DNA of 64,000 nt from Isurus oxyrinchus (taxonomy: Eukaryota), in NCBI GenBank assembly GCA_026770705.1, contig JANJGN010000009.1:27032001-27096000 (forward strand). The letters are read 5' to 3'. The number at the start of each line of letters is the position of its first letter. Position 1 is the stretch's first letter. Both the position numbers and the translations under genes were made by a program. Below the pieces are notes generated by a model. That model was not told where the DNA came from and did no database searches. It saw nothing but the letters and a program-made list of their open reading frames with translations. Positions 2,051-64,000 of this stretch are shown piece after piece.

Positions 2051-3814
2051 TTAATACAAGTGGAGGGTGGGGGGGGGGAGGGGAGGGCTGCTGCTGGTGT
2101 GCAGCTGCAGACAGTAAAGTAGAATTGAGGCCACAACCAGGCTAGCTAAGGCCTTATGGTAGAGCAGACTGTAAGGGCCAAATGGCCTACTGTTCCTAAT
2201 TTGTGTGTTCCTAATTGGGAGGGAGGTGAAAGTTGGAGATGAGTTGGGGAGGGAATTTGACAGGTGAACACGTCAGGAAAAAGGTCAGGAGTTTAGCAGA
2301 GTGCTTGCTGAGTGGAATTTATAACCAACTTGACATTAATTTAAAAAACTGCCAGGTACTGAATGCCAGAACTAAGTGGGAAACCTGATAGACAAGCTAG
2401 ATCAACATTTTGAGCAGAGGCTCTTTTGTCTGAACTGAATGTTTTTAGCCAAAGCAGTAGCCTTTGTTTTCAGATGCTGGAGGAATTGCTGTACATTTCC
2501 AGTATCTTCGGTTTTTATTCCATTTTCACATTCAAGGCGTGTGTCATGCTCTGTTTTCTTATAACATGTTTTTACTGGCTGCCATCTCAGTAGAAGCATG
2601 AGTGATTTTTAAAAAATAATTCATTGCTTTTAATCATCTTGGTTGCAGCAAACAAAACATTTAGTGGGATATTTATTGTTGGAGGGATGCCTGACCTGTC
2701 CCAGTGCAATGGTTAACCTGTTAAAGTGTTACCTTCAAATGTGGGCAAGGCAATTCAGTTATAAAAGATAAAACCTAACATCTCCAGGAATCCTATACCA
2801 ATTAGTCTTTGATCATTGAGTTGAGAGGTGACTGAATTTATTATATACTCAGGGTTATTGTGTTCAGACATTTCAACAGCCTGATATCCACTTATTATCC
2901 ATTTAGCAGTTAAGTTGGCCAGTTCTTAGTGGGGCTTTCAAGGCCTCAACTATAAGCTGTCACTAAGGCAGGTAACAGTTGGAATATGTCACCTATAAGT
3001 GAAATTTGATGAACTCCAGTCTGTCTCAGAGCTTAACTCCAGATTGAATTTCAGGCCACTTCAGTGCAGTATTAGCTCTTCTAGCATCTGAACATATTAA
3101 CTTCAATTAGAATTTATCAAATCCGCCCTCATTCCTTTAACAGTAGCCAAGTGTAAGAGATTTTTGCAAGCATGCACAGTTAAACACCCAGGCAAATCTC
3201 CACACCAGCTTGAGCTACAGCAAGTGGGTTTACTTCCCCTGGGGCATGGGGCTAAATTATTTACTAAGTTCCATTCGCTGACATTCAGTCTGGCTGCAGC
3301 TTGTTCCTGATGCCGTTGCTTTGTTCTCTAACATTATTGTACTGAATTTGGGAATTCCTGGCCTTGTGATAAATCGGGACTGTCTTCCTGCAGTGCAAAA
3401 ACAAAGCATTGACATCTATGAACTGCAGTCGGTGCTTGTGATAAGGAGCATTAAAGGGAGTGAAATGCTTTGGTGAACTAGGGGAAGGATGAAGGGGAGT
3501 ATCGTGGGATTTGCTGGGCAGGGGGCATGCCTCAATGATGTGTGTGTGTGGGAATTGAAAGGGGAATGTGCCTCCGTACTGGAAGGTCAGTTTGGGAAAG
3601 GAGAGAGAATCTGTAGAGAAGAGCTCCAATGGACTTTGGGGCATTTGGAGGGGCAGGGTATCTGTGAACAAAGTAGCTAGAGAACATGTCTCCTACAGTT
3701 CAGAAAGAATGGGGGTAGGGGAGTGCTACACCAAGAGCAGCACTCCTGAGGCCAATAAGTCCTGGAGTGGGACTTGAACCCAGAGCCTCTGGTTTGAATC
3801 ACTGAATTGTTACG

Positions 3815-4959: not shown

Positions 4960-5400
4960 CCCCCTGGTGACTGTCTGTTTGAAATCATATAATCCTGAAA
5001 TCATATAACCCTGAGACATTGTTAGATTGCCTACTACCACCTGTGGGTGATCATTCTTCATGTGACTCTAGATGGTGTGTATTAGCAGGCTCTTTGATTG
5101 TAGTGGAGAAACATCACAGCAAAGCTGTCCTTACTTGACGACATCTAGATTTGTACTTTCTACCAGTAGTTACTGGATTACATTCAGTGATAGGAATCCT
5201 GGTTCTGTCGAAGGGTCATGAAGACTCGAAACGTCAACTCTTTTCTTCTCCGCCGATGCTGCCAGACCTGCTGAGTTTTTCCAGGTAATTCTGTTTTTGT
5301 TTTAAATATTTTTAAACCCTGTCTCTGCATGAAGGACACCAGTACCCATCTGTGGTCCCAAAACCTTTGTGCAACTGACATCAGCTCTGTGCTTAACTAA
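4960..5400 (-). mobile_element. Ancient tRNA-type SINE (AmnSINE2-like), interrupted by a Penelope terminal insert
   Basis: Similar to 47020-47340 (+), 51140-51365 (-) and 61065-61325 (+); family name from recalled consensus only. Confidence 0.4.
5202..5303 (+). mobile_element. Young solo Penelope terminal fragment with hammerhead motif (tailless)
   Basis: 101/102 identical to 62562-62663; homologous to the element 3' end at 29189-29286. Confidence 0.85.
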
Positions 5401-5919: not shown

Positions 5920-6855
5920 GATTTTAGATGAGGTAAGTGAATGTACTATTGCCAAGTTTGCAGATAACAAAAATAACAAAGGTGGGAAGGCAAGTGTTGA
6001 GGATGACCATCTACAGGTTGTGAGTGGGAGATCACGTATCTTGGCAGATGGAATATAATGTGGGAAGATGAGGTTATGCATTCTGGCAGGAAGAATAGAG
6101 CAGCTGAATATAATTTAAATGGAGAAATACTGCAGAAAGCTACAGCACAGAGGGATTTGGGTGTCCTCGTGCATGAATCCCAAAAAGCTAGCATACAAGT
6201 TCAGGTAATAGGGAAGGCAAATGAAATGTTGGCCTTTATTTCAAAGGGAATGGAGTATAAAAATAGGGAAGTCTTGCTAATACTCTACAAGGCACTAGCT
6301 CAACCACACCTGGAGTACTGTGAACAGTTTTGGTCCCCTTATCTAAGGAAAAATATGCTGGCATTGGAGGCAGTCCAGAGAAGGTTCGTTAGGTTGATAC
6401 TGGGTATGGAGGAATTTTCTGATGAGAGGTTGAGTAGGTTGGGCCTGTACTCTTTGGAGTTTAGAAGAATGAGAGGTGACCTTATTGAAACATAAGATTC
6501 TAAGGGGGCTTGACAGAGGGGATGTTGAGAGGTTCTTTCACCTTGTGGGAGAGTCCAGGACCAGAGGATATAATCAGAGTAAGGGGTCGCCCATTTAAAA
6601 CTGAAATGAGGAGGAATTTCTTCTGAGGGTAGTGAATCTGTGAAATTCTTTACCACAGGGCTGTAGAGACTCGGTCGTTAAGTATATTCAAGGTTGAGAT
6701 AGACACTGATTTTTAATCAGTAAGAGAATTGAGGGCTATGGGGCAAAGGCAGAAAGTGGAGTGAGGATTATCAGATCAGCCATGATTTCATTGAATGGCA
6801 GAGCAGACTTATTGGGCCGAATGGCCTACTTGTGCTCCTACATTTTATGGTCTTA
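5920..6855 (+). mobile_element. CR1 LINE 3' part, 5'-truncated
   Basis: ORF 6058-6495 RDLGVLVH...[12 protein letters not shown]...RLGLYSLEFRRMRGDLIE; tail gggccgaatggcctacttgtgctccta. Confidence 0.92.
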
Positions 6856-9164
6856 GTTTATTCAGTTGATAGCCTGCATTAATGGTAGTGAGGTTTCCAA
6901 CTGGTATGTACTATAAAAGGATGCATGATCAGATCCTCAAACTAGGTGAGACTACAATTCCCTAATGGAATGGTAGATGCCTGTTTAATCAGCTAGTATT
7001 TTGATAAAAGCATCAAATGTTTTTGTTTTGATTAGAGTCTTTACTAATTACAACATCTGGGTACTCTGGCTGCCATATTTGGTCAGCTGTAACCAAGTAT
7101 GCACTTGAGAGCAGTTACGCTTGTGTGCACAAAAAGCACTTTGTCTATAATTAGAGCGGTGCCTTAGAGATGGTCTCCCCTGGCCTTTGAGTTTGTTTTC
7201 AACTCCAAGAAATTATAGCAATTTTATCTTGTCCTCAATTCCAGCATTGCACATGATCGCCCCTCCTCTCAGTGACTGATGAATTAATGCTGCTACCTTC
7301 AATTATGCATACATGAAACTAATACGATATAAAAAGCAGTGGAAGGAAAATAATTAATTAAATGTTAATTGACCAAAGGAGCTAGAGGGGTCAGGCCACA
7401 TCATCGGCGGAGTTATTTTTGGCAAGCAGCATTGCAGGTTCTTTGCACGACAGGAGAGAGCACCCAGGGTTTCAGATTGCAATGGAAATGCAGTTGGCCC
7501 AGGTAAGGGAGCAGAGAATGGGTGTTGTTATAGTGGCACCCATCTGCTGTTCTTGGGAAGCACATGGACGTCATTAGCTATGCTGCGGAGGGTAGTACAG
7601 ACCTCTCAGAATCCACCCAAATTCTTATGTTTCTGGGTGAGTGTGTAGAAATGATGGCATGCCTTACAATGATGGTGTTTTGGCACCTCCCCAGAAAATG
7701 AACATTTGCTTATGTGATAGTGTCAGGGGACCCACTGAGCAAGTGGAATTCTTTCTGATGTGGGAGAGGGAACTGAGCAATATACAGAAATAATTTTTTT
7801 TTCAACTTGAAAGCAAATGTCATAGAAAGATTGAATCCAGTGTACTCTTTTATGCATGTCTGAGAACTAGGTGGAGCAATAGGCAGATGAAGCAAATGTT
7901 TTTAGCTTAATAGAAAAAGTACAAAATCTGAGATTAACCGAATGGTCCCAATATTTGGGGGTAGGGGGACAGTGCAGGAGACTGGATTGGGTAGGAAAGA
8001 AGTCATGATGGGTTGGTAGGGAGGAGCAGGCCATGATTTTTTTGCAGTGTGGGAGGAGGGGGGAGGTTGGGCATGGGGTGGGGGTGAGATATATTACAAT
8101 GGGGGGGAGGTGGGGGAAAGCATGAGGAGATGGATGGAAGATTGGAGAGACCTTGATGGGTTGGGGAGAGGGGTCAAAGAGACCTCCATCTGATGAGGGG
8201 GAGCGATAGGAGACTAACAGGGCAAGGGGAAGCAGGAGGTACCTTTGTGGGACCTGGGGAGAATACCAGCTCAGAGACCCAGAATGTGCTTTTTAAAAAA
8301 AAAAATACTCTACTTACCTTGTGGAGCCAGTGGCTCCCATCTCTCTTTCACTGCCAACTCTGGGAAACTCGTTCAGAGAGGCAGTCAACTTGGAACTGGA
8401 GTCCCAAACACATTATGGACATGTGTGTGTTAAATATGTTAGTGTCCTGCCTCTCCTGTCAGATATCCTGATACCTGCTGGCATGAAAAAGGCACTGGGT
8501 ACATGTGGCAAGTTCCCCATATTTATCTCTTTAATCTCAACACATCACCCACACCTACTCCCGTGACCTTCCCCCATCCATTACATAGTGGTGGAAAGAG
8601 ATAAATATAGAGATCAATGATTCAGACTGCAAGAGAAACTTCATTATGGCCCCACCCAATGACATTTTATCTAATCAATTGTAATGAAACTCCATTCATT
8701 AAACACAAAATATTAAATATTTCACAGAATTTGTGTCTGATCCGTGACCGATCAGTGCATCAGTTCATCCTTTTCAAGTGATTTGTTTGCCAATTGCAAG
8801 TATTTTAATCTGTGGGAAAAGTACGAAGAGGTTGAGCTCCCAAGAACATTGCTTACAACTCAAACTTGTGCTAATGTTGTGGTAGCAGGATTGTAACCAT
8901 CAGGATTTGAAACGAGTGGTCATTGGTTCTTTGCCAGTGTGTTAAATACGTAACTGCCCCAGAGGATGTGAACTCGAGCCCTGTTTTTGACAGCTTTCTT
9001 TGTTGTCCAAAGCTTGATGTTTGAACACTGGCTAGAACTGAGCTTTAAGCCCAATAGTGTATCTAATCCTTTCATAGATTATTTTACTTGGATTTCTTGT
9101 AAACTAGGTTTGAGAAATTGAGACAACAGGATATTGTATCTGATTATTCATTGGGCAAGACACA

Positions 9165-17194: not shown

Positions 17195-17333
17195 TAGGTG
17201 GAGGCAAAGGAGAGATTGCCAAAGATGTCATGTCATGGATAAAGGATTGTTAATATAGTAATACTGGCTAAAGTGGGTACTGATGGTGGCATCAAGGTCA
17301 GAATGTGATAATGGCAGGACAAGAGTAAGCACT
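17195..17333 (-). mobile_element. Inverted Penelope terminal-repeat fragment abutting the 5' end of the next element
   Basis: Reverse complement agtgcttactcttgtcctgccattatcacattct... matches 18481-18555. Confidence 0.7.
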
Positions 17334-17334
17334 T

Positions 17335-18706
17335 AATTCCTGGTGATAGACTGTCCACCACTATTTACTACAAGCTGACCAATTCCCACAGTTCCCTAGA
17401 CTACACTCCTCACACCCTGCCTCCTGTAAGGACTCCATTCCATTCTTGGTTCCTTTGCCTCTGTCGCATCTATTCCAATGTTACCACTTTCCAAAATGGT
17501 GCTTCTGACATGTCTTCCTCCTTCAATCGAGGTTTCCCACCCACTGTGGTTGACGGGGCCCTCAACTGTATCTGACGCATCTACTGTGCCTCTGCCCTCA
17601 CACTTTCCTATCCCTCCTAGAACCATGATAGGGTCCCCCTTGTCCTCACTTTTCACCCCACCAGCCTCCGCATTCAAAGGATCATCCTTCACCATTTCTG
17701 CCAACTCCAGCATAATGCCACCACCAAACACATCTTCCCCTCACTGCACCCCCCTACCCCCGTCAGCATTTCATAGGGACCATTCCCTCTGGGACACCCT
17801 GGTCCACTCCTCCATCGCCCCCAACACCTCATCTCCCTCCCATGGCACCTTCCCATGCAATTGCAGAAGGTGCAGCACCTGTCGCTTTACCACCTCCCCT
17901 CCTCACCATCCAATGGCCCAAACACCCCTTTCTGGTGAAATAGTGCTTCACTTGCACCTCCTTAAATTTGATCTACTGCATTTCCTGCTCCCAATGCAGT
18001 CTTCTCTACATTGGAGAGACAAAACGCAGACTGGGTGATCAATTTGCGGAACATCTTTGGTCTGTCTGCAAGCATGACCCGGACCTTCCGGTGGCTTGCC
18101 ATTTCAACACTCCACCCTGCTCTCATGCCCACATGTCTGTCCTTGGCCTGCTGCAATGTTGCAGTGAAGCTCAACACAAACTGGAGAAACAGCACCTCAT
18201 CTTCCGACTAGGCACTTTACAGCCTTCCGGACTTAACATTGAGTTCAACAACTTCAGATCATGAATTCTCTCCTCCACCCTTACCCCTTCTTGTTTTTAC
18301 CCCCTTTTTTAATATTCTTTCTCATTTCTTAATTTTTTATTCACTTATTTTTATTTTCATTTTTATTCATTGTTTTATCCCCACCTTTTATCCTATTTTC
18401 AATCTTTTTTTCCCCCACCACTGTCCCCTTCCCCCACCCCACAAGGACCATCTGTCATTTGTTCATGTTGCTCTTTCCAGAGTGCTTACCTTTGTCCTGC
18501 TATTATCACATTCTACTTTCTGATCTTAATACCACCATCAGCACCTCCTTCACCTGTTCCACCCCCTTAGACAGTATAAACTTCATTACATTTTTACTTC
18601 TCTCTAGCTCTGAAGAAGAGTCTTAAGGACTCGAAACAACTCCTGTTTTTTTTCTCTCCATAGATGCAGCTAGGCCTGAGTTTTTCCAGCATTTTCTATT
18701 TTTGTT
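17335..18706 (+). mobile_element. Penelope-like element, lineage A (Neptune-type), 5'-truncated and frameshifted
   Basis: Cys linker TFPCNCRRCSTC; GIY-YIG IYCISCSQCSLLYIGETKRRLGDQFAEH...LGTLQPSGLNIEF; terminal hammerhead motif. Confidence 0.9.
18606..18642 (+). ncRNA. Hammerhead motif lacking its cleavage triplet
   Basis: CTGAAGA-A-gagtc-ttaag-gactc-GAAAC-aactc; 3 nt missing relative to gaaacgtcaactc in other copies. Confidence 0.6.
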
Positions 18707-18984
18707 GCGGAATTATTTGTTCACTTGGGCAGGTGGACCATATACTCTGAAGCTTGTTCTGTCTACAAGGATGGGAGGTGAAATGAGGCAAATGTAGTTT
18801 AGAATTCTTGGCTCAATGCACAAAATGGTTGGTTCTTTTACTGCACACTTTGATTCCATAGAGGAGTGGGACTAGTTGAGTAGCTCTTGGAGAGAGCTGG
18901 CACAGATTTGATTGGTTACAGCACAGAAGAAGGAGGTTATTCAACCTTTCAATTATCATTGCCAATGTCATAGTTGGGGTCCGA

Positions 18985-25838: not shown

Positions 25839-26798
25839 TGTGTTCTAGGTGTAAGCAAAAGTTATAACAACTAATCTGAATGGTCTTGTGTGCCAGGATG
25901 AACCAGTAGTTAACACTACCTGAAGGTTATATCATGTCTTAACCTTGGTGCTTCTGTGCGCTCAATACTTCATATGCAAAGAGCGCATGAGCTGAAATAA
26001 TAAAATGAAATAAAAAGGTTCATGGCAGCAGACATTGAGCTCTGATCAAAATACCAAAAGCCATTAATGGCCTTGATACTTCTATCAATCAGATAATCAT
26101 TTCAATTTTTATTATCTAATGTGTGACAGGCTGAAGACAAATAAATTGAACTTTTTGCATGACCAGATCAGTGGTTACAGATTGCTAAATAAATAGGAAA
26201 ACAGGGCCCTCTGGAGAAACGGACTATTGACTTAGGGGTTCTGTAGACAATGAATACTTTGGCCTATAGTACAGACTTTTGTCTCCCTGTATGTATTCAA
26301 TAATGGATGTGCATGTGTTATCCATCCTGGGCTGTAAATAATAGCTAAATTGATCCCTTTTAATTTGTTTTAAAGAAATGATAGACTCAAGTCTCTTGCT
26401 AAATTGATGAGCATTAGATTAGCTTATGGGGAGAATGACCAATTGTCTAACCCACAGGCAAGTCCCAACATCCCACTCCCCACTATCCTCAAGCTCTCAC
26501 CAGGACTGCATGTTGCTCAATAATTCACCATCTCCATTGAACATAAGGAAAAGGAAGCTTTTGTTGTTGAAGTGCCAATCATTTCTCTCTCAACAACTCA
26601 AAGCACAAAATGTACAGCAAATTATTTGTAATGCACCAACTGTTATGGTAGGCAATTGGATTAGCCATTTCACACTCAGTGAGACCTCTCAAATCTGGTT
26701 TTGTTGACACTGGTTGAGGAAGGTTTTAGGCTGCGTGTTTGGAGCTCTTGATATAAACATTCCCTCTTAGGTTGCTGCAAAACAGCATAGCTAAAAGT

Positions 26799-28424
26799 AA
26801 AAATAAAAATACCTGGAAAATCTCAGTAAGTCTGACAGCATCTGCGGGGAAGAACACAATTAACGTTTCAAGTCCGTATGACTCTTCAACAGAACTAAGG
26901 AAAATGAGAAGAGAAGTGAAATATAAGCTGGTTTAAGGGGGGGGGGTGGGCCAAGTAGAGCTGGATAATGGATCAGTGATAGGTGGAGATAGCCAAAAGA
27001 TGTCTTGGACAAAAAAGGACAAAGAGGTGTTGACGGTGGTGAGATTATCTAAGGAATGTGCTAATTGGTGACATTAAGGATAGAAAGCAGGACGAGCAAG
27101 GTACAGACAGCCCTAGTGGGGTGGGAGGAAGGGATCGAAATAGGCTAAAAGGTAGAGATAAAACAATGGATGGAAATACATTTAAAAATTATGGAAATTG
27201 ATAGGAAAATAAAAATCTATATAAATTATTGGAAAAAATGGGGTGGGGATGGAGGATAGAGTTCATGATCTAAAATTGTTGAACTCAATATTCAGTTCAT
27301 AAGGCTGTAAAGTGCCTAGTCGGAAGATGAGGTGCTGTTCCTCCAGTTTGTGTTGAGCTTCACTGGAACATTGCAGCAGGCCACAGGCCAAGGACAGACA
27401 TTTGGGCATGAGAGCAGGGTGGAGTGTTGAAATGGCAAGCAACAGGGAGGTCTGGGTCATGCTTGCAGACAAACCGAAGGTGTTCCGCAAAGCGGTCATT
27501 CAGTCTGCATTTGGTCTCTCCAATGTAGAGGAAACCGCATTGGGAGCAGTGAATGCATTAGACTAAATTGAGGGAAATGCCAGTGAAATGCTGCTTCACT
27601 TGAAAGGAGTGTTTGGGCCCTTGGACGGTGAGGAGAGGGGAAGTAAAGGGGCAGGTGTTGCATCTTCTGCAGTTGCATGAGAATGTGCCATGGGAGGGGG
27701 TTGAGGTGTAGGGGGTGATGGAGGAGTGGACCAGTGTGTCCCAGAGGGAATGATCCCTGCGTAATGCCACCAGGGGATGAAGGGCAGATGTGTTTGGTGG
27801 TGGCATCATGCTGGAGTTGGCGGAAATGGTGGAGGATGATCCTTTGAATGTGGAGGCTGTTGGGTTGATAAGTGAGGACAAGGGGGACAACGTCATGGTT
27901 CTGGGAGGGAGAGGAAGGTGTGAGGGCAGATGCGTGAGAGATGGGCCGGACGCGGTTGAGGGCCCTGTCAACCACCATGAGTGGAAAAGCTCGGTTAAGG
28001 AAGAAGGAATACATGTCAGAGAAACTGTTTTTGCAAGTGGTATCATCAGAACAGATGTGACAGAGGTGAAGGAACTGAGAGAATAGGATGGAGTCCTTAC
28101 AGGAAGCGGGGTGTGAGGAGTTGTAGTCGAGTGGGAGTCGGTAGGCTTGTAATGAATATTGCTGGACAGTCTATCACCAGAAATTGAGACAGAGGTCAAG
28201 GAAGGGATGGGAAATGTCAGAGATGGACCATGTGAAAATGATGGAAGGGTGGAAATTGGAAGCAAAATTAATAAATTTTTCCAAGTCCAGACGAGAGCAT
28301 GAAGCAGCACCGAAGCAATCATCGATGTACTGGAGAAAGAGTTGTGGGAAGAGGCTGGAGTAGAACTGGAACAAGGAATGTTCCACGTACCCCATAAAGA
28401 GACAGGCATAACTGGGGCCCATGC
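26799..28424 (-). mobile_element. Penelope-like element lineage A, left arm (RT core, GIY-YIG and terminus)
   Basis: MGPSYACLFMGYVE...LQYIDDCFG (RT YIDD motif); CNCRRCNTC linker; LEEQHLIFRLGTLQP. Confidence 0.93.
26859..26895 (-). ncRNA. Minimal hammerhead motif, variant core
   Basis: Minus strand: gtt-CTGTTGA-A-gagtc-atacg-gactt-GAAA-cg-TT-aat. Confidence 0.55.
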
Positions 28425-29327
28425 CGCTTTACTTCCCCTCTCCTCACCGTCCAAGGGCCCAAACACTCCTTTCAAGTGAAGCAGCATTTCACTTGCACTT
28501 CCCTCAATTTAGTCTAATGCATTTGCTCCTAATGCGGTTTCCTCTACATTGGAGAGACCAAATGCAGATTGGGTTACCACTTTGCGGAACACCTTCGGTC
28601 TGTTCGCAAGCATGACCCAGACCTCCCTGTCCCTTGCCATTTCAACACTCCACCCTGCACTCATGCCCACATGTCTGTCCTTGGCTTGCTGCATTGTTCC
28701 AGTGAAGCTCAACACAAACTGGAGGAACAGCACCTCATCTTCTGACTAGGCACTTTACAGCCTTATGAACTGAATATTGAGTTCAACAATTTTAGATTAC
28801 GAACTCTCTCCTCCATCCCCACCCCCTTTCCAATCTCCCTTTTTTCCAATAATTTATATAGATTTTTCTTTTCCCACCTATTTCCATTATTTTTAAATAT
28901 ATTTCCATCCATTGTTTTATCTCTACCTTTTAGCCTATTTCAATCTCTTCCCCCCAACCCATCCCCACTAGGGCTGTCTGTACCTTGCTCGTCCTGCTTT
29001 CTACCCTTAATGTCACCAATTAGCACATTCCTTAGATAATCTCACCACCGTCAACACCTTTGTCCTTTTTGTCTATGACATCTTTTGGCTATCTCCACCT
29101 ATCACTGGCCCTCTATCCAGCTCTACTTGGTCTCCCCACCCCCACCCCCAAACCAGTTTATATTTCATCTCTCTTCTATTTTTCCTTAGTTCTGTTGAAG
29201 AGTCATACGGACTCGAAACGTTAACGGTGTTCCTCTCAGCAGAATGCTGTCAGACCTGCTGAGATTTTCCAGGTATTTTCATTTTTGTTTTCGATTTCCA
29301 GCATCCGCAGTTTTTTGCTTTTATTTT
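28422..29327 (+). mobile_element. Penelope-like element lineage A, right arm (GIY-YIG, terminus and 41-nt tail)
   Basis: Inverted copy of 26799-27653; ends at the TSD agcatagctaaaagt. Confidence 0.92.
29189..29225 (+). ncRNA. Minimal hammerhead motif, variant core
   Basis: gtt-CTGTTGA-A-gagtc-atacg-gactc-GAAA-cg-TT-aac; stems I and II pair. Confidence 0.65.
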
Positions 29328-29544
29328 AGCATAGCTAAAAGTCCTGTACAGGCAGTGCACGAGCCGCCCCCTTTTTAAGTTACTGACCCTGCACATTCGT
29401 GCAAAAAAAAAAAATTCAAGGCCTAATGTCAATGGCCCCTTCAGACAAACTAGTGCAAAACCATTCCTAGTCGCGAAGGACCTTGCAGGCTCTCTTTTTT
29501 TCCTACTTTCCTCTAAATTTACAGTTCATGAATATAAGCTGTTT

Positions 29545-29895
29545 TATGCACAGAAAGGTTGGTCCTTCAATCCATTGAGTCTGTTGCATCTCTTTCAAAG
29601 AAAAATCCAGTTAGCCTCACTTTGCAGCTCTTTCCCCCTATCCACACTGTTTAATTCCACTTCAAGTGTGTATTCAACTCCTTTTGAAAGCTACTACTGA
29701 ACCAGTTTCCATTATCCTTTCGGGCAAAAAAAAAAACTCATTTCGCATCTGCTGCTTTTGCCAGTCACCTTTTAAGTCTGTGTACTCTGGCTATAGATCC
29801 TTCAACCATTCGAAAAACAGTTTCTTTTAATTACACGCTGTTTAGATAGGGTAAATTAAACACCTCTGTCAAATCCTTCTGCTCTAAGGAGCACA
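29545..29895 (-). mobile_element. Old CR1 3' fragment
   Basis: cacagaaaggttggtccttcaatccattgag...ttcaactccttttgaaag...ccttctgctctaagg. Confidence 0.55.
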
Positions 29896-31943: not shown

Positions 31944-32133
31944 TAAAATAAAATCAAAATTCTGCAGATGCTGGAAAACTGAAATAAAAGCTGGGAAAAC
32001 TCAGCTGGGAAAACTCTGGCAGATCTCTGCAGAGAGTAACACAGTTAATGTTTAGAATCTAATATGGCTCCTCTTTGAACAGATACTGCCAGATCTAAGT
32101 TTTCTTTCCCAGCAATTTGTTTTTATTTATTTT
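31944..32133. mobile_element. Miniature tail-out pair of Penelope termini with 9-bp TSD
   Basis: AAACGAACC at 31935-31943 and 32134-32142; left arm is a minus-strand terminus with tail and decayed hammerhead, right arm a plus-strand tailless terminus. Confidence 0.7.
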
Positions 32134-44477: not shown

Positions 44478-45830
44478 ATATTCCATGCCACGTGCTAGTG
44501 AGGCTAGAAATAGGAGGATAATGCAACTAAATATGTGGCTAAAGAGATGGTGCAGGAGTGAGGGCTTCACGTTTCTGGACAATTGGGCTCTGTTCCACGG
44601 AAGATGGGACTTGTTCCGAAGGGACGGTTTGCTAGTGCTGCTCCGGGGGGTTTAAACTAGATTTGCAGGGGGGAGGGGAACCAGAGTGTTAGAGCAGATA
44701 GTGAGGTGGAGGAGGATAAAGGTCAAGCAACATGTATAGACAGAAATCAAGGGTTTCTACGGGATTGAAATGTTCTCAGGTGCATCTATTTTAATGCAAG
44801 GTGTATTGTCGGAAAGGCAGATGAGCTTTGGGCACGTGGGATTACGACATTATTGCTATTAGTGAGACTTGGTTGCAGGAGGGGCAGGACTGGCAGCTCA
44901 ATGTTGCAAGGTTCCATTGTTTCAGACGTGACAGAGGGGGAGGGATGAAAGGGGGAGGAGTGGCATTACTAGTCAGGGAAAATATCATAGCTGTGCATAA
45001 GCAGGACAGCCCGGAGGGCTGTTCCGCAGAGGCCATATGGGTGGAGCTGAGGAACGGGAAAGGTGTGTCCACACTAATAGGGTTGTATTATAGACCGCCC
45101 GATAGTCAGAGAGAATTGGAGGAGCAAATCTGTAGAGAGATAGCAGACCGATGTAAGAAACAGAAAGTTGTGATAGTAGAAGATTTTAACTTTCCACATA
45201 TTGACTGGGACTCCCATATTGTAAAAGGGCTGGATGGCTTGGAGTTTGTCAAATGTGTTCAGGATAGTTTTCTAAATCAATATATAGAGAGGATGCAATA
45301 CTTGATCTCCTATTAGGGAACCAGACAGGTCAAGTGACAGAAGTATGTGTAGGCGAACATTTTGGGTCCAGTGACTACAATGTCATTAGTTTTAAATTAA
45401 TTATGGATAAGGATAGGTTTGGTCCTCGAGTTGAGATTCTAAATTGGAGAAAGGCCAATTTTGTGGAAATGAGAAGGGATCTAGGAAGAGTGGATTGGGA
45501 TAAGTTGTTTTCTGGCAAGGATGTGTTCAGTAAGTGGAAGGCATTCAAAGGCGAAATTTTGAGAGTGCAGAGTTACATGTTCCTTAAAGATTAAAGACAA
45601 AGTTCAGGCATAGGGAATCTTGGTTTTCAAGGGATATTGGCGATCTGGTTAAGAAGAAGAGAGAGGTGTATAGCAGGTATAGGCAACAAGGAGCAAATGA
45701 GGTACTTGTAGAGTATAGAAAATGTAAGAAAATACTAAAGAAGGAAATCAGGAAGGCAAAAAGACGACATGAGGTTGCTTTGGCAGATAATGTGAAGGTA
45801 AACCCAAAGGGTTTCTACAAATATATTAAG
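44478..45830 (+). mobile_element. CR1 LINE (ORF1 end, endonuclease, linker), truncated at the right inverted-repeat arm
   Basis: YDIIAISETW...RRDR..GGGVALLV...GLYYRPP...DFNFPHIDW. Confidence 0.92.
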
Positions 45831-61837: not shown

Positions 61838-64000
61838 TAAGACATAGGAGCAGAAGTAGGCCATTCAGCCCATTGAGTCTGCTCTGGCATTCAGTGAGAT
61901 CATGGCTGATCTGATAATCCTCAACTCCACTTTCCTGCCTTTTCTCCAAAACCCTTGATTCCCTTACTGATTTAAAAATGTCCGTCTCCACCTTGAATAT
62001 GCTCAATGACCAGCCCTCTGCAGTAAAGAATTCCACAGATTCACTACCCTCAGAAGAAATTCCTCCACATCTCGGTCTTAAATGGGTCAATCCTTACTCT
62101 GTGATTATGCCTTCTGGTCCTAGACTCTCCTAGTAAGGGAAACAACCTCTCAACATCTATCCTGCTAAGCTCCCCTAAGAATCTTATGTTTCAATAAGGT
62201 TGCCTCTCATTCTTCAAAACTCCAATGAGTACAAGCCCAACCTCTCCTCATAAGAAAATCCCTCCATACCTGGGATCAACCTAGTGAACCTTCTCTGGCT
62301 TGCCTCCAATGCCAGAAATCTTTCCTTAGATAAGAGGTCCAAAACTGTTCACAGTATTCTAGGTGTGGTCTAACTAATGCCTTGTATAGTTTTAGCAAGA
62401 CTTCTGTTTGAAATAAAGGCCAACATTCCTTTTGTCTTTTCTATTACCTGCTTGTATGTTAGCTTTTGCGGATTCATGCATGGGGATTCTCAAATCCTCT
62501 GTGCATCAGCTTTCTGCAGTCTTTATCCATTTAAATAATATTCAGCTGGACTCGAACTCAAGTTCTGTCGAAGGGTCATGAGGACTCGAAACGTCAACTC
62601 TTTTCTTCTCCGCCGATGCTGCCAGACCTGCTGAGTTTTTCCAGGTAATTCTGTTTTTGTTTTGGATTTCCAGCATCCGCAGTTTTTTTGTTTTATCCTC
62701 TATTCTTCCTGCCAAAATGCATAACCTCACATTTCCCACATTCCATCTGCCAAGTTTATGACTACTCACTCAACATGTCTATATCCCTCTGTAGACTGTC
62801 ATTCCCACCACTTGCCTTCCTGGCTATTTACGTCATCTGAAAACTTGGTGATAGTACATTCACTTCCCTCATCTAAGTATTAATATATATTATAAATAAT
62901 TGTGGCCCCAGCACTGATCCCTGTGGCACTCCACTAGTTACATGTTGCCATCCTGAAAATTGCCCCCTAATCCCAACCCTGTCTTCTATTAGTTAACCAA
63001 TTCTCTCTCCATGCTAATATACTATCCCCAACACCACGGGCTCTTAGCTTATCAAATAGCCTTATGTGCAGTACCTTATTAAATGCCTTTTGGAAATCTA
63101 AATATATTACATCTACTGGTTCACATTTTATCTATCCTGCTTGTTACCACTTCAAAGAGTTCTAATAAATTTGTCAGGCATGATTTCCCCTTCATGAAGC
63201 CATGCTGACTCTACTTGATTAGATTATGCACTTCTAAATGCTCTGCTAATACATCCTTTAAAATAGACTCTAACATTTTCCCAATGATGAATGTTAAGCC
63301 AACTGGCCTGTAGTTCTGTTTTTCTCTCTCCCTTTTTGAATAAGGGTGTTACATTGGCAGTTTTCCAATCTTGGACTTTTCCAGAATCTAAGGATACTTG
63401 GAAGATTACCAGATTATCCATTATTTGTGCAGCTATTTCCTTTAATATCCTAGGATGCAACCCATTAGGTCCAAGGAACTTATCAGCCTTTAGCCCCATT
63501 AGTTTCCCTAGTACCTTTTTTCTCTGGTGATTGTTATTGTATTTATTCCCCCCCCCCCCCACCCCCCAACCTGTTCTCTTTCCCCTTTGATTATTTAGTG
63601 TTTTTGGAATGCTATTAGTGTCTTCGACTGTGAAGACTGATGCAAAGTATTTATTCAACTCCTCTACCATTTCCTGGTTCCCCATTATTATTTCCCCAGC
63701 TTTATTCCCTAAGGAGCCTATGTTCCTTTTTATATATTTAAAAAAGCTCTTACTGTCCATTTTTATATTACCTGCTGGTTTATCCTCCAAGATTATTTTC
63801 TCCCTCTTAATTATTTTTTGATCATCTTTTGTTGGTTCTTAAAACTTTCCCAATCATCTGGCTTACCACTAATCTTTGCGACACTGTATGATTTTTGCTT
63901 TCAATTTGATACTATCCTTAACTTGATTAACCATGGTTGGTTTACCCTCCTTTTCACAGGGATATATCTTCGTTGTGAGTCATGAACTATTTTCAACGTC
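61838..64000 (-). mobile_element. CR1 LINE (linker, RT, 3' end), runs off the window
   Basis: ELNKYFASVFT...GPNGLHPRILKE...DWKTANVTPLFKKG; 3' UTR at 61838. Confidence 0.93.
62548..62696 (+). mobile_element. Young solo Penelope terminal fragment with hammerhead motif and tail, inserted in CR1
   Basis: agtt-CTGTCGA-A-gggtc-atgag-gactc-GAAA-cg-TC-aact; interrupts ttcagct|cctctattcttcc with no clear TSD. Confidence 0.88.

Follow-up and report, generated by a model that had tools for sequence, protein, structure and literature searches.

How do two copies of a Penelope-like element (PLE) come to lie with their termini pointing outwards within a single target-site duplication (TSD), and why does only one of them carry a tail? 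The question is raised by an insertion at 26784–29342 of a 64,000-nt stretch of DNA from Isurus oxyrinchus, the whole of which is referred to here as the window. Its features (RT, reverse transcriptase; EN, endonuclease) are as follows:

26784–26798, plus strand: left copy of the TSD, AGCATAGCTAAAAGT, 15 bp, an exact repeat
26799–28424, minus strand: left (short-end) arm, 1626 nt, 5′-truncated and without a tail, running from the RT core through a linker and a GIY-YIG-type EN to the internal terminus, with a broken ORF
26857–26897, minus strand: minimal hammerhead-shaped motif with core CUGUUGA (U at position 6) and a G-U pair closing stem II, its layout compared with PMC4209133
27651–27677, minus strand: C-X4-C-X2-C linker motif upstream of the EN, of the Neptune/Nematis type as defined in PMC8557442
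27654–28421, minus strand: 768-nt part exclusive to the left arm (C-terminal part of the RT), forming the loop between the arms
28318–28329, left arm, minus strand: YIDD motif
28422–28424, either strand: TGC junction microhomology common to both arms, from family copies crossing both breakpoints
28422–29327, plus strand: right (tailed) arm, 906 nt including the tail, running from the EN to the terminus
28765–28768, plus strand: three-change variant common to both arms and private in the genome, with its partner within 27284–27313 on the minus strand
29187–29227, plus strand: minimal hammerhead-shaped motif with core CUGUUGA and one broken stem I pair
29287–29327, plus strand: tail, 41 nt, right arm only, from the arm alignment and family termini
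29328–29342, plus strand: right copy of the TSD, AGCATAGCTAAAAGT, 15 bp, an exact repeat whose first 2 nt continue the family template

The preliminary description had proposed a minus arm running from RT to terminus and a plus arm running from GIY-YIG to terminus, and the arm alignment and motifs agree with it at every coordinate. The 15-bp TSD that it had placed around them is exact and scores 15, and none of 150 mismatched flank pairings reached 9. Comparison with family copies spanning both breakpoints gave a junction overlap of exactly 3 nt, so that the TGC indeed belongs to both arms, and the extra 41 nt on the right arm proved to be the family tail, missing from the left arm. The right arm begins at the last cysteine of the linker motif. 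Aligned with each other, 26799–27653 (minus) and 28422–29286 (plus) have 789 matches and 51 mismatches in 840 ungapped columns (6.1%), with 12 gaps, and stops and frameshifts are present in both arms. The locus is a dead, decayed copy that arose in a single event, in a layout that has already been published.

By the motif definitions of PMC8557442, the element is classified as a putative Neptune/Nematis-type Penelope-like retrotransposon, not as Penelope or Poseidon proper. That account describes a CX2-5CxxC linker upstream of the EN in Neptune and Nematis that is missing in Penelope and Poseidon, and the C-X4-C-X2-C at 27651–27677 has this form. As in other EN-containing PLEs, YIDD is followed by the EN region in the left arm, and the DKG motif is present in a full-length copy (L020), which gave a weak match to RVT_1 (E 3e-4, below the curated cut-off). 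Pfam searches with the decayed arms returned nothing relevant and the EN was not recognised, so the EN assignment rests on motifs, namely a CSQC before YIG, which places two cysteines between GIY and YIG as in the CCHH type, and histidines further on. A PDB sequence search with the RT gave no significant match. The family has the architecture expected of PLEs (pLTR tandems, an inverted truncated copy, an optional tail and a TSD of variable length): L020 is arranged as pLTR-ORF-pLTR with a unit of ~3270 nt, partial tandems are found at L020, L034, L115, L132 and L135, and there are 46 inverted units. Five loci (L037, L062, L021, L002 and L072) represent a much younger subfamily, with copies 1–3% apart, the core CTGTCGA and a GUC cleavage triplet. 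Within the window, further fragments of the same PLE group lie at 5202–5303, 17332–18714, 31945–32059 and 62561–62697, and a LINE-type apurinic endonuclease fragment lies at 44825–45313 (Exo_endo_phos, E 1e-10). This LINE endonuclease was all that a search for a host gene found among the 120 of 245 non-repeat open frames that were scanned.

To place the locus within its family, we sampled 39 best matches, 60 arbitrarily placed 10-kb stretches and 20 further matches (119 loci), together with the window; a second set consisted of 18 stretches chosen on an internal motif. TSDs were accepted at a score of at least 9, the 150 mismatched pairings serving as the null. In the first set, the ends of the family terminus fall into two clusters, at ~106–118 and 142–148 of the terminal 148 nt. 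Among 58 candidate tail-out pairs, 46 were at least 75% covered by the family (three of them overlapping in L115), and these comprised 45 pairs of a tailed with a short end and one short+short pair, which lacks a TSD. A TSD score of at least 9 was obtained for 31 pairs (33 if two units split by later insertions are included), and all 31 join a tailed to a short end. The second set added 13 TSD-flanked units, 12 of them tail+short and one with a short end and a partial tail; its three tail+tail pairings had no TSD above the null and crossed unit borders. Over both sets, every TSD-flanked tail-out unit (46/46, one with the partial tail) thus has one short and one tailed end. The TSDs of these units range from 10 to 18 bp, with 14 bp in 20 and 13–15 bp in 35 of the 46. 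This strict rule, as a count, is what is added here to the published layout. A literature search of accessible main texts did not find the pairing stated as a strict rule, although subscription papers and supplements may hold such models.

Single-arm copies end at either site, several of them with a TSD (called, for single arms, without the null), which indicates that both sites are real start points. The overlap between target end and template averages 1.1–1.2 nt at both ends (41 and 42 usable ends of 46), versus 0.35–0.37 nt by chance under a null that takes no account of target preference; an overlap of 1–5 nt is seen at ~55% of ends and none at ~45%. At the window locus, the tail end has an overlap of 2 nt and the short end has none. 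Short arms at many loci start at the 5′ edge of the hammerhead motif, ~129–138 nt upstream of the tail end. The unit at 1159–8646 of L137 has a tailed arm that begins partway through the tail, where 4 nt match the target. At L100 (G000:C1865, 5567–9600), inside the plus arm of another inverted unit, a ~32-nt piece of the element's 3′ region has become a tandem array of ~4 kb.

How might such a unit arise? The preliminary description had proposed a single event, which is upheld by the exact TSD, by arms of the same subfamily and by the recurrence of the one-tail, one-short pattern throughout the TSD-flanked units. It had further proposed that both ends of a staggered cut primed reverse transcription about 40 nt apart; with the 46 units, the two terminus clusters and the start sites described in PMC11167929, this would be the likeliest reading of the copies. 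We consider it likely that target-primed reverse transcription, started at each 3′ end of a cut staggered by 15 nt, produced the insertion. Such a cut would leave two target 3′ ends, each priming cDNA synthesis from the 3′ region of the RNA, one starting at the end of the tail and the other at an internal site 41 nt upstream; the outward termini, each adjoining a copy of the TSD, fit this arrangement. The two truncated cDNAs could then anneal through TGC/GCA and each prime the second strand of the other, and partial gene conversion between the arms may have followed. The protein–RNA complex would be dimeric and asymmetric: it must be asymmetric or hold only one RNA, since two equal primers choosing their start sites freely should give like ends in 50% of units, and none of the 46 has them. 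The strict rule and the narrow stagger of 13–15 bp thus exclude a symmetric complex with free start-site choice. All of these steps are read from fossil copies, with no intermediate observed. A more specific form of dual priming, put forward tentatively, is that a dimeric protein holds one RNA while the target ends prime at the internal site and at the tail end; that the second RT displaces the first cDNA, both arms being copied from the same molecule, is proposed with similar reserve. If true, this would explain the asymmetry of all 46 units, the ~14-bp stagger, the near-symmetric 5′ ends and the private variants shared between arms.

We considered the possibility that one cDNA, primed at the tail end, had snapped back and copied itself; the EN would then have resolved the intermediate ~40 nt short of the tail, and part of the palindrome's centre would have been lost later through an asymmetric deletion at TGC. 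Fold-back of this kind would leave each unit with a single tail and with arms that were identical when formed. Four of the 13 long pairs are near-perfect palindromes (p=0.0013), an excess compatible with fold-back and also with two primers that each run to the end of a single RNA. Self-priming is argued for by Arkhipova et al. (2013; PMC3846280), and Craig et al. (2021; PMC8557442) attribute the tail to EN-mediated resolution. However, neither arm of the window locus contains the other, the left arm having 768 nt that are missing from the tailed arm and the right arm having the tail, and the short-end arm extends further 5′ in 20 of 38 pairs, as against eight in which the tailed arm does; plain fold-back is disfavoured on these grounds. 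The 20 pairs include tailed arms of 63–240 nt beside partners of 1.2 kb, for each of which an extensive deletion after insertion would have to be assumed. There are also single short-end copies flanked by TSDs, and the length of the tail matches the two RT start sites seen in vitro (PMC11167929). Fold-back is therefore judged unlikely as the origin of these units. Independent insertion of two copies, one landing at the 5′ end of the copy already present, would be easier to envisage in so dense a family (one 20-nt motif has 39,990 exact matches in the genome of 4.98 billion bases), and a near-identical junction did arise independently at L100. Yet both arms lie within one exact TSD, with no further TSD between them; separate insertions should pair two tailed or two short ends about half the time, against 0/46 seen; and in the 60 arbitrary 10-kb loci tail-out pairs account for 22 of 45 termini. 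We give this explanation almost no credence. Propagation of the whole dimer was also rejected: the sole similar junction, at L100, is displaced by 6 nt and differently flanked, and its unit has the short end on the plus arm.

The ~860 bp common to the arms had been suggested as a clock for the insertion, a use that is weakened by the variants that the arms share. Within 13 long units, rare non-CpG variants are shared between arms at 5.35/kb, versus 0.56/kb in 2495 between-locus pairs; five are shared at the window locus and none in 4 of the 13 units. The window motif that carries three shared changes has just two matches in the genome, one per arm, and in all five units tested genome-wide (the window and four others, with motifs chosen for carrying several shared changes) no source or sibling locus with the motif was found. 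Because such variants are common to both arms and private to them, divergence between arms is an unreliable clock. It may reflect the time of the last homogenisation and not that of the insertion, and 6.1% is at best a lower bound on the age.

Later conversion from arm to arm is probably the main cause of this sharing, although our preference for it is not a strong one. Shared variants are clustered (21 within 50 nt versus 12.1 expected), and differences between arms are scarcer within 20 nt of them (0.050 versus 0.064, p=0.007); the same depletion gave p=0.029 in 17 other units and p=0.22 in the 12 independently chosen ones alone. Separate older, similar neighbours share variants in excess as well, with eight in 3170 nt; all 15 rows labelled independent share nine in 10,210 nt, many of them across subfamilies. 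These three patterns, clustering, depletion and sharing between neighbours, speak against the alternative that a single RNA from a slightly diverged source copy served as template for both arms, with two primers of which the second displaced the first cDNA, and with little later conversion. So does the want of a source or sibling copy in five of five genome-wide tests, since a fixed source would survive each about half the time by a rough estimate. A shared template would nevertheless account for the contrast between 5.35/kb and 0.56/kb, for the strict asymmetry with near-symmetric 5′ ends, for the uneven spread of shared variants among units (p=0.003), and for the failure to see any long converted or identical tract, here (p=0.30) or in 12 other units (p=0.25–0.98). 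We regard it as a serious but less probable explanation. Shared variants per difference (25/261 in young and 46/592 in old pairs, leaving out L123, whose partner arm was not recovered) do not separate conversion from a shared source. RT errors are disfavoured as the origin of the shared variants by an excess of shared CpG changes (7.2% versus 4.4%). The arms of the L137 unit have 21 rare variants in common over 1.8 kb despite a 3.2-kb insert between them. At L133, arms of two separate units 4 kb apart (2326–3419 and 6603–7755) have four rare variants in common, which suggests conversion between neighbours or a common source. Dating by LTRs is reported to be biased by gene conversion (PMC7251063), which is also described between Alus that lie near each other (PMC8230782). 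The likeness to those accounts is that nearby repeats homogenise and skew divergence dating; here the conversion would be between inverted PLE arms and is deduced from private shared variants, not from cross-species tracts.

Contigs of a sister species were searched for an empty orthologous site, and none was seen in them. They cover 29303–29709, comprising 25 nt of the tail, the TSD and flank, with the tailed end at the same site. On the left they stop 43 letters past 26784, exactly as the own-species contig does; these letters are repeat-skipped, so that the left junction is supported indirectly. The insertion seems to be present in the sister species too. Flank divergence between the species is 20/1056 positions and, if equal rates are assumed, the 6.1% between arms makes the insertion likely to be about three times older than the split. 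The sister-species contigs also leave the window sequence at 26345, with other letters beyond, pointing to a lineage-specific insertion or deletion 440 nt to the left of the element.

Ribozymes had been placed at both outer ends. The shape is indeed present in both arms, on opposite strands: alignment gives stems I and II, an extra base after A9, GAAA, a palindromic helix III and a UH site. The motifs are set back from the ends, by 59 nt from the short-end position and by 100 nt from the tail end, and nothing in the window reached the gathering scores of Rfam. Moreover, the core C3 U4 G5 A6 N7 G8 A9 is altered, both arms reading CUGUUGA, not CUGANGA. Cores in 166 rows, some of them misparsed, include CTGTTGA (73), CTGTCGA (16) and CTGATGA or CTGAAGA (14). 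Since U6 is found in most family copies, the change is inherited, and it is also present in the youngest subfamily, whose arms differ by 0.5–2.4%. In another hammerhead, A6C sharply lowers the Mg2+ cleavage rate (PMC7151607); a test of A6U was not found in a search of accessible main texts. Self-cleavage of these putative U6 hammerheads is doubtful. Because the motifs lie on opposite strands, a single transcript could not bring them together as a cis dimer; in RNA reading through both, they would be expected to pair with each other. Cervera and de la Pena (2014; PMC4209133) noted paired minimal hammerheads on opposite strands, and their metazoan PLE type I hammerheads are alike in the short stem I, the extra base between 9 and 10.1 and the palindromic minimal helix III; the difference is U at position 6 here, in both arms and most copies.

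Inverted PLE units have been described before. Pen2a_Av has an inverted pLTR, a one-sided tail and a 9-bp TSD (PMC3846280), and the Figure 2 legend of PMC8557442 notes that the tail is often at one end only. The units described here resemble these in having head-to-head arms within one TSD, a 30–40-nt tail at one end and a hammerhead motif near the termini. They differ in the TSD mode of 14 bp, compared to 8–10 bp in the rotifer examples, in long arms (860 nt in common) in place of a pLTR-sized inverted piece, and in that the one-tail asymmetry is counted rather than described as frequent.

The closest biochemical parallel is the anole Poseidon element PAc (Frangieh et al. 2024; PMC11167929), whose purified protein, a predicted dimer, cuts and extends both strands, uses two RT start sites spaced by the length of the tail, and supports insertion without need of hammerhead cleavage. 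Dual priming, as the likeliest reading, follows closely from these results. This support comes from another clade, however: PAc is a Poseidon element without the linker Zn motif, and the element here would be of Neptune/Nematis type. PMC11167929 reports no homology at the start site, whereas short overlaps are present at more than half of the ends here, and its main account treats neither inverted units nor the pairing rule. PLE integration is still called undefined in PMC8557442, and PMC11167929 leaves its later steps unvalidated, which makes the census useful. The locus alone is an ordinary fossil; its worth lies in the counted rule, the narrow stagger and the caution over arm dating. The pairing rule and stagger also make clear predictions for an existing in vitro system.

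A literature search of accessible main texts returned nothing relevant on twin priming with PLEs or on shark Neptune elements. In the twin priming of L1, both target ends prime reverse transcription and the inverted junction shows microhomology, as at the window locus. The arms of L1 inversions copy different parts of one RNA, whereas both arms here carry the same 860 nt, each starting from one of two fixed 3′ sites.
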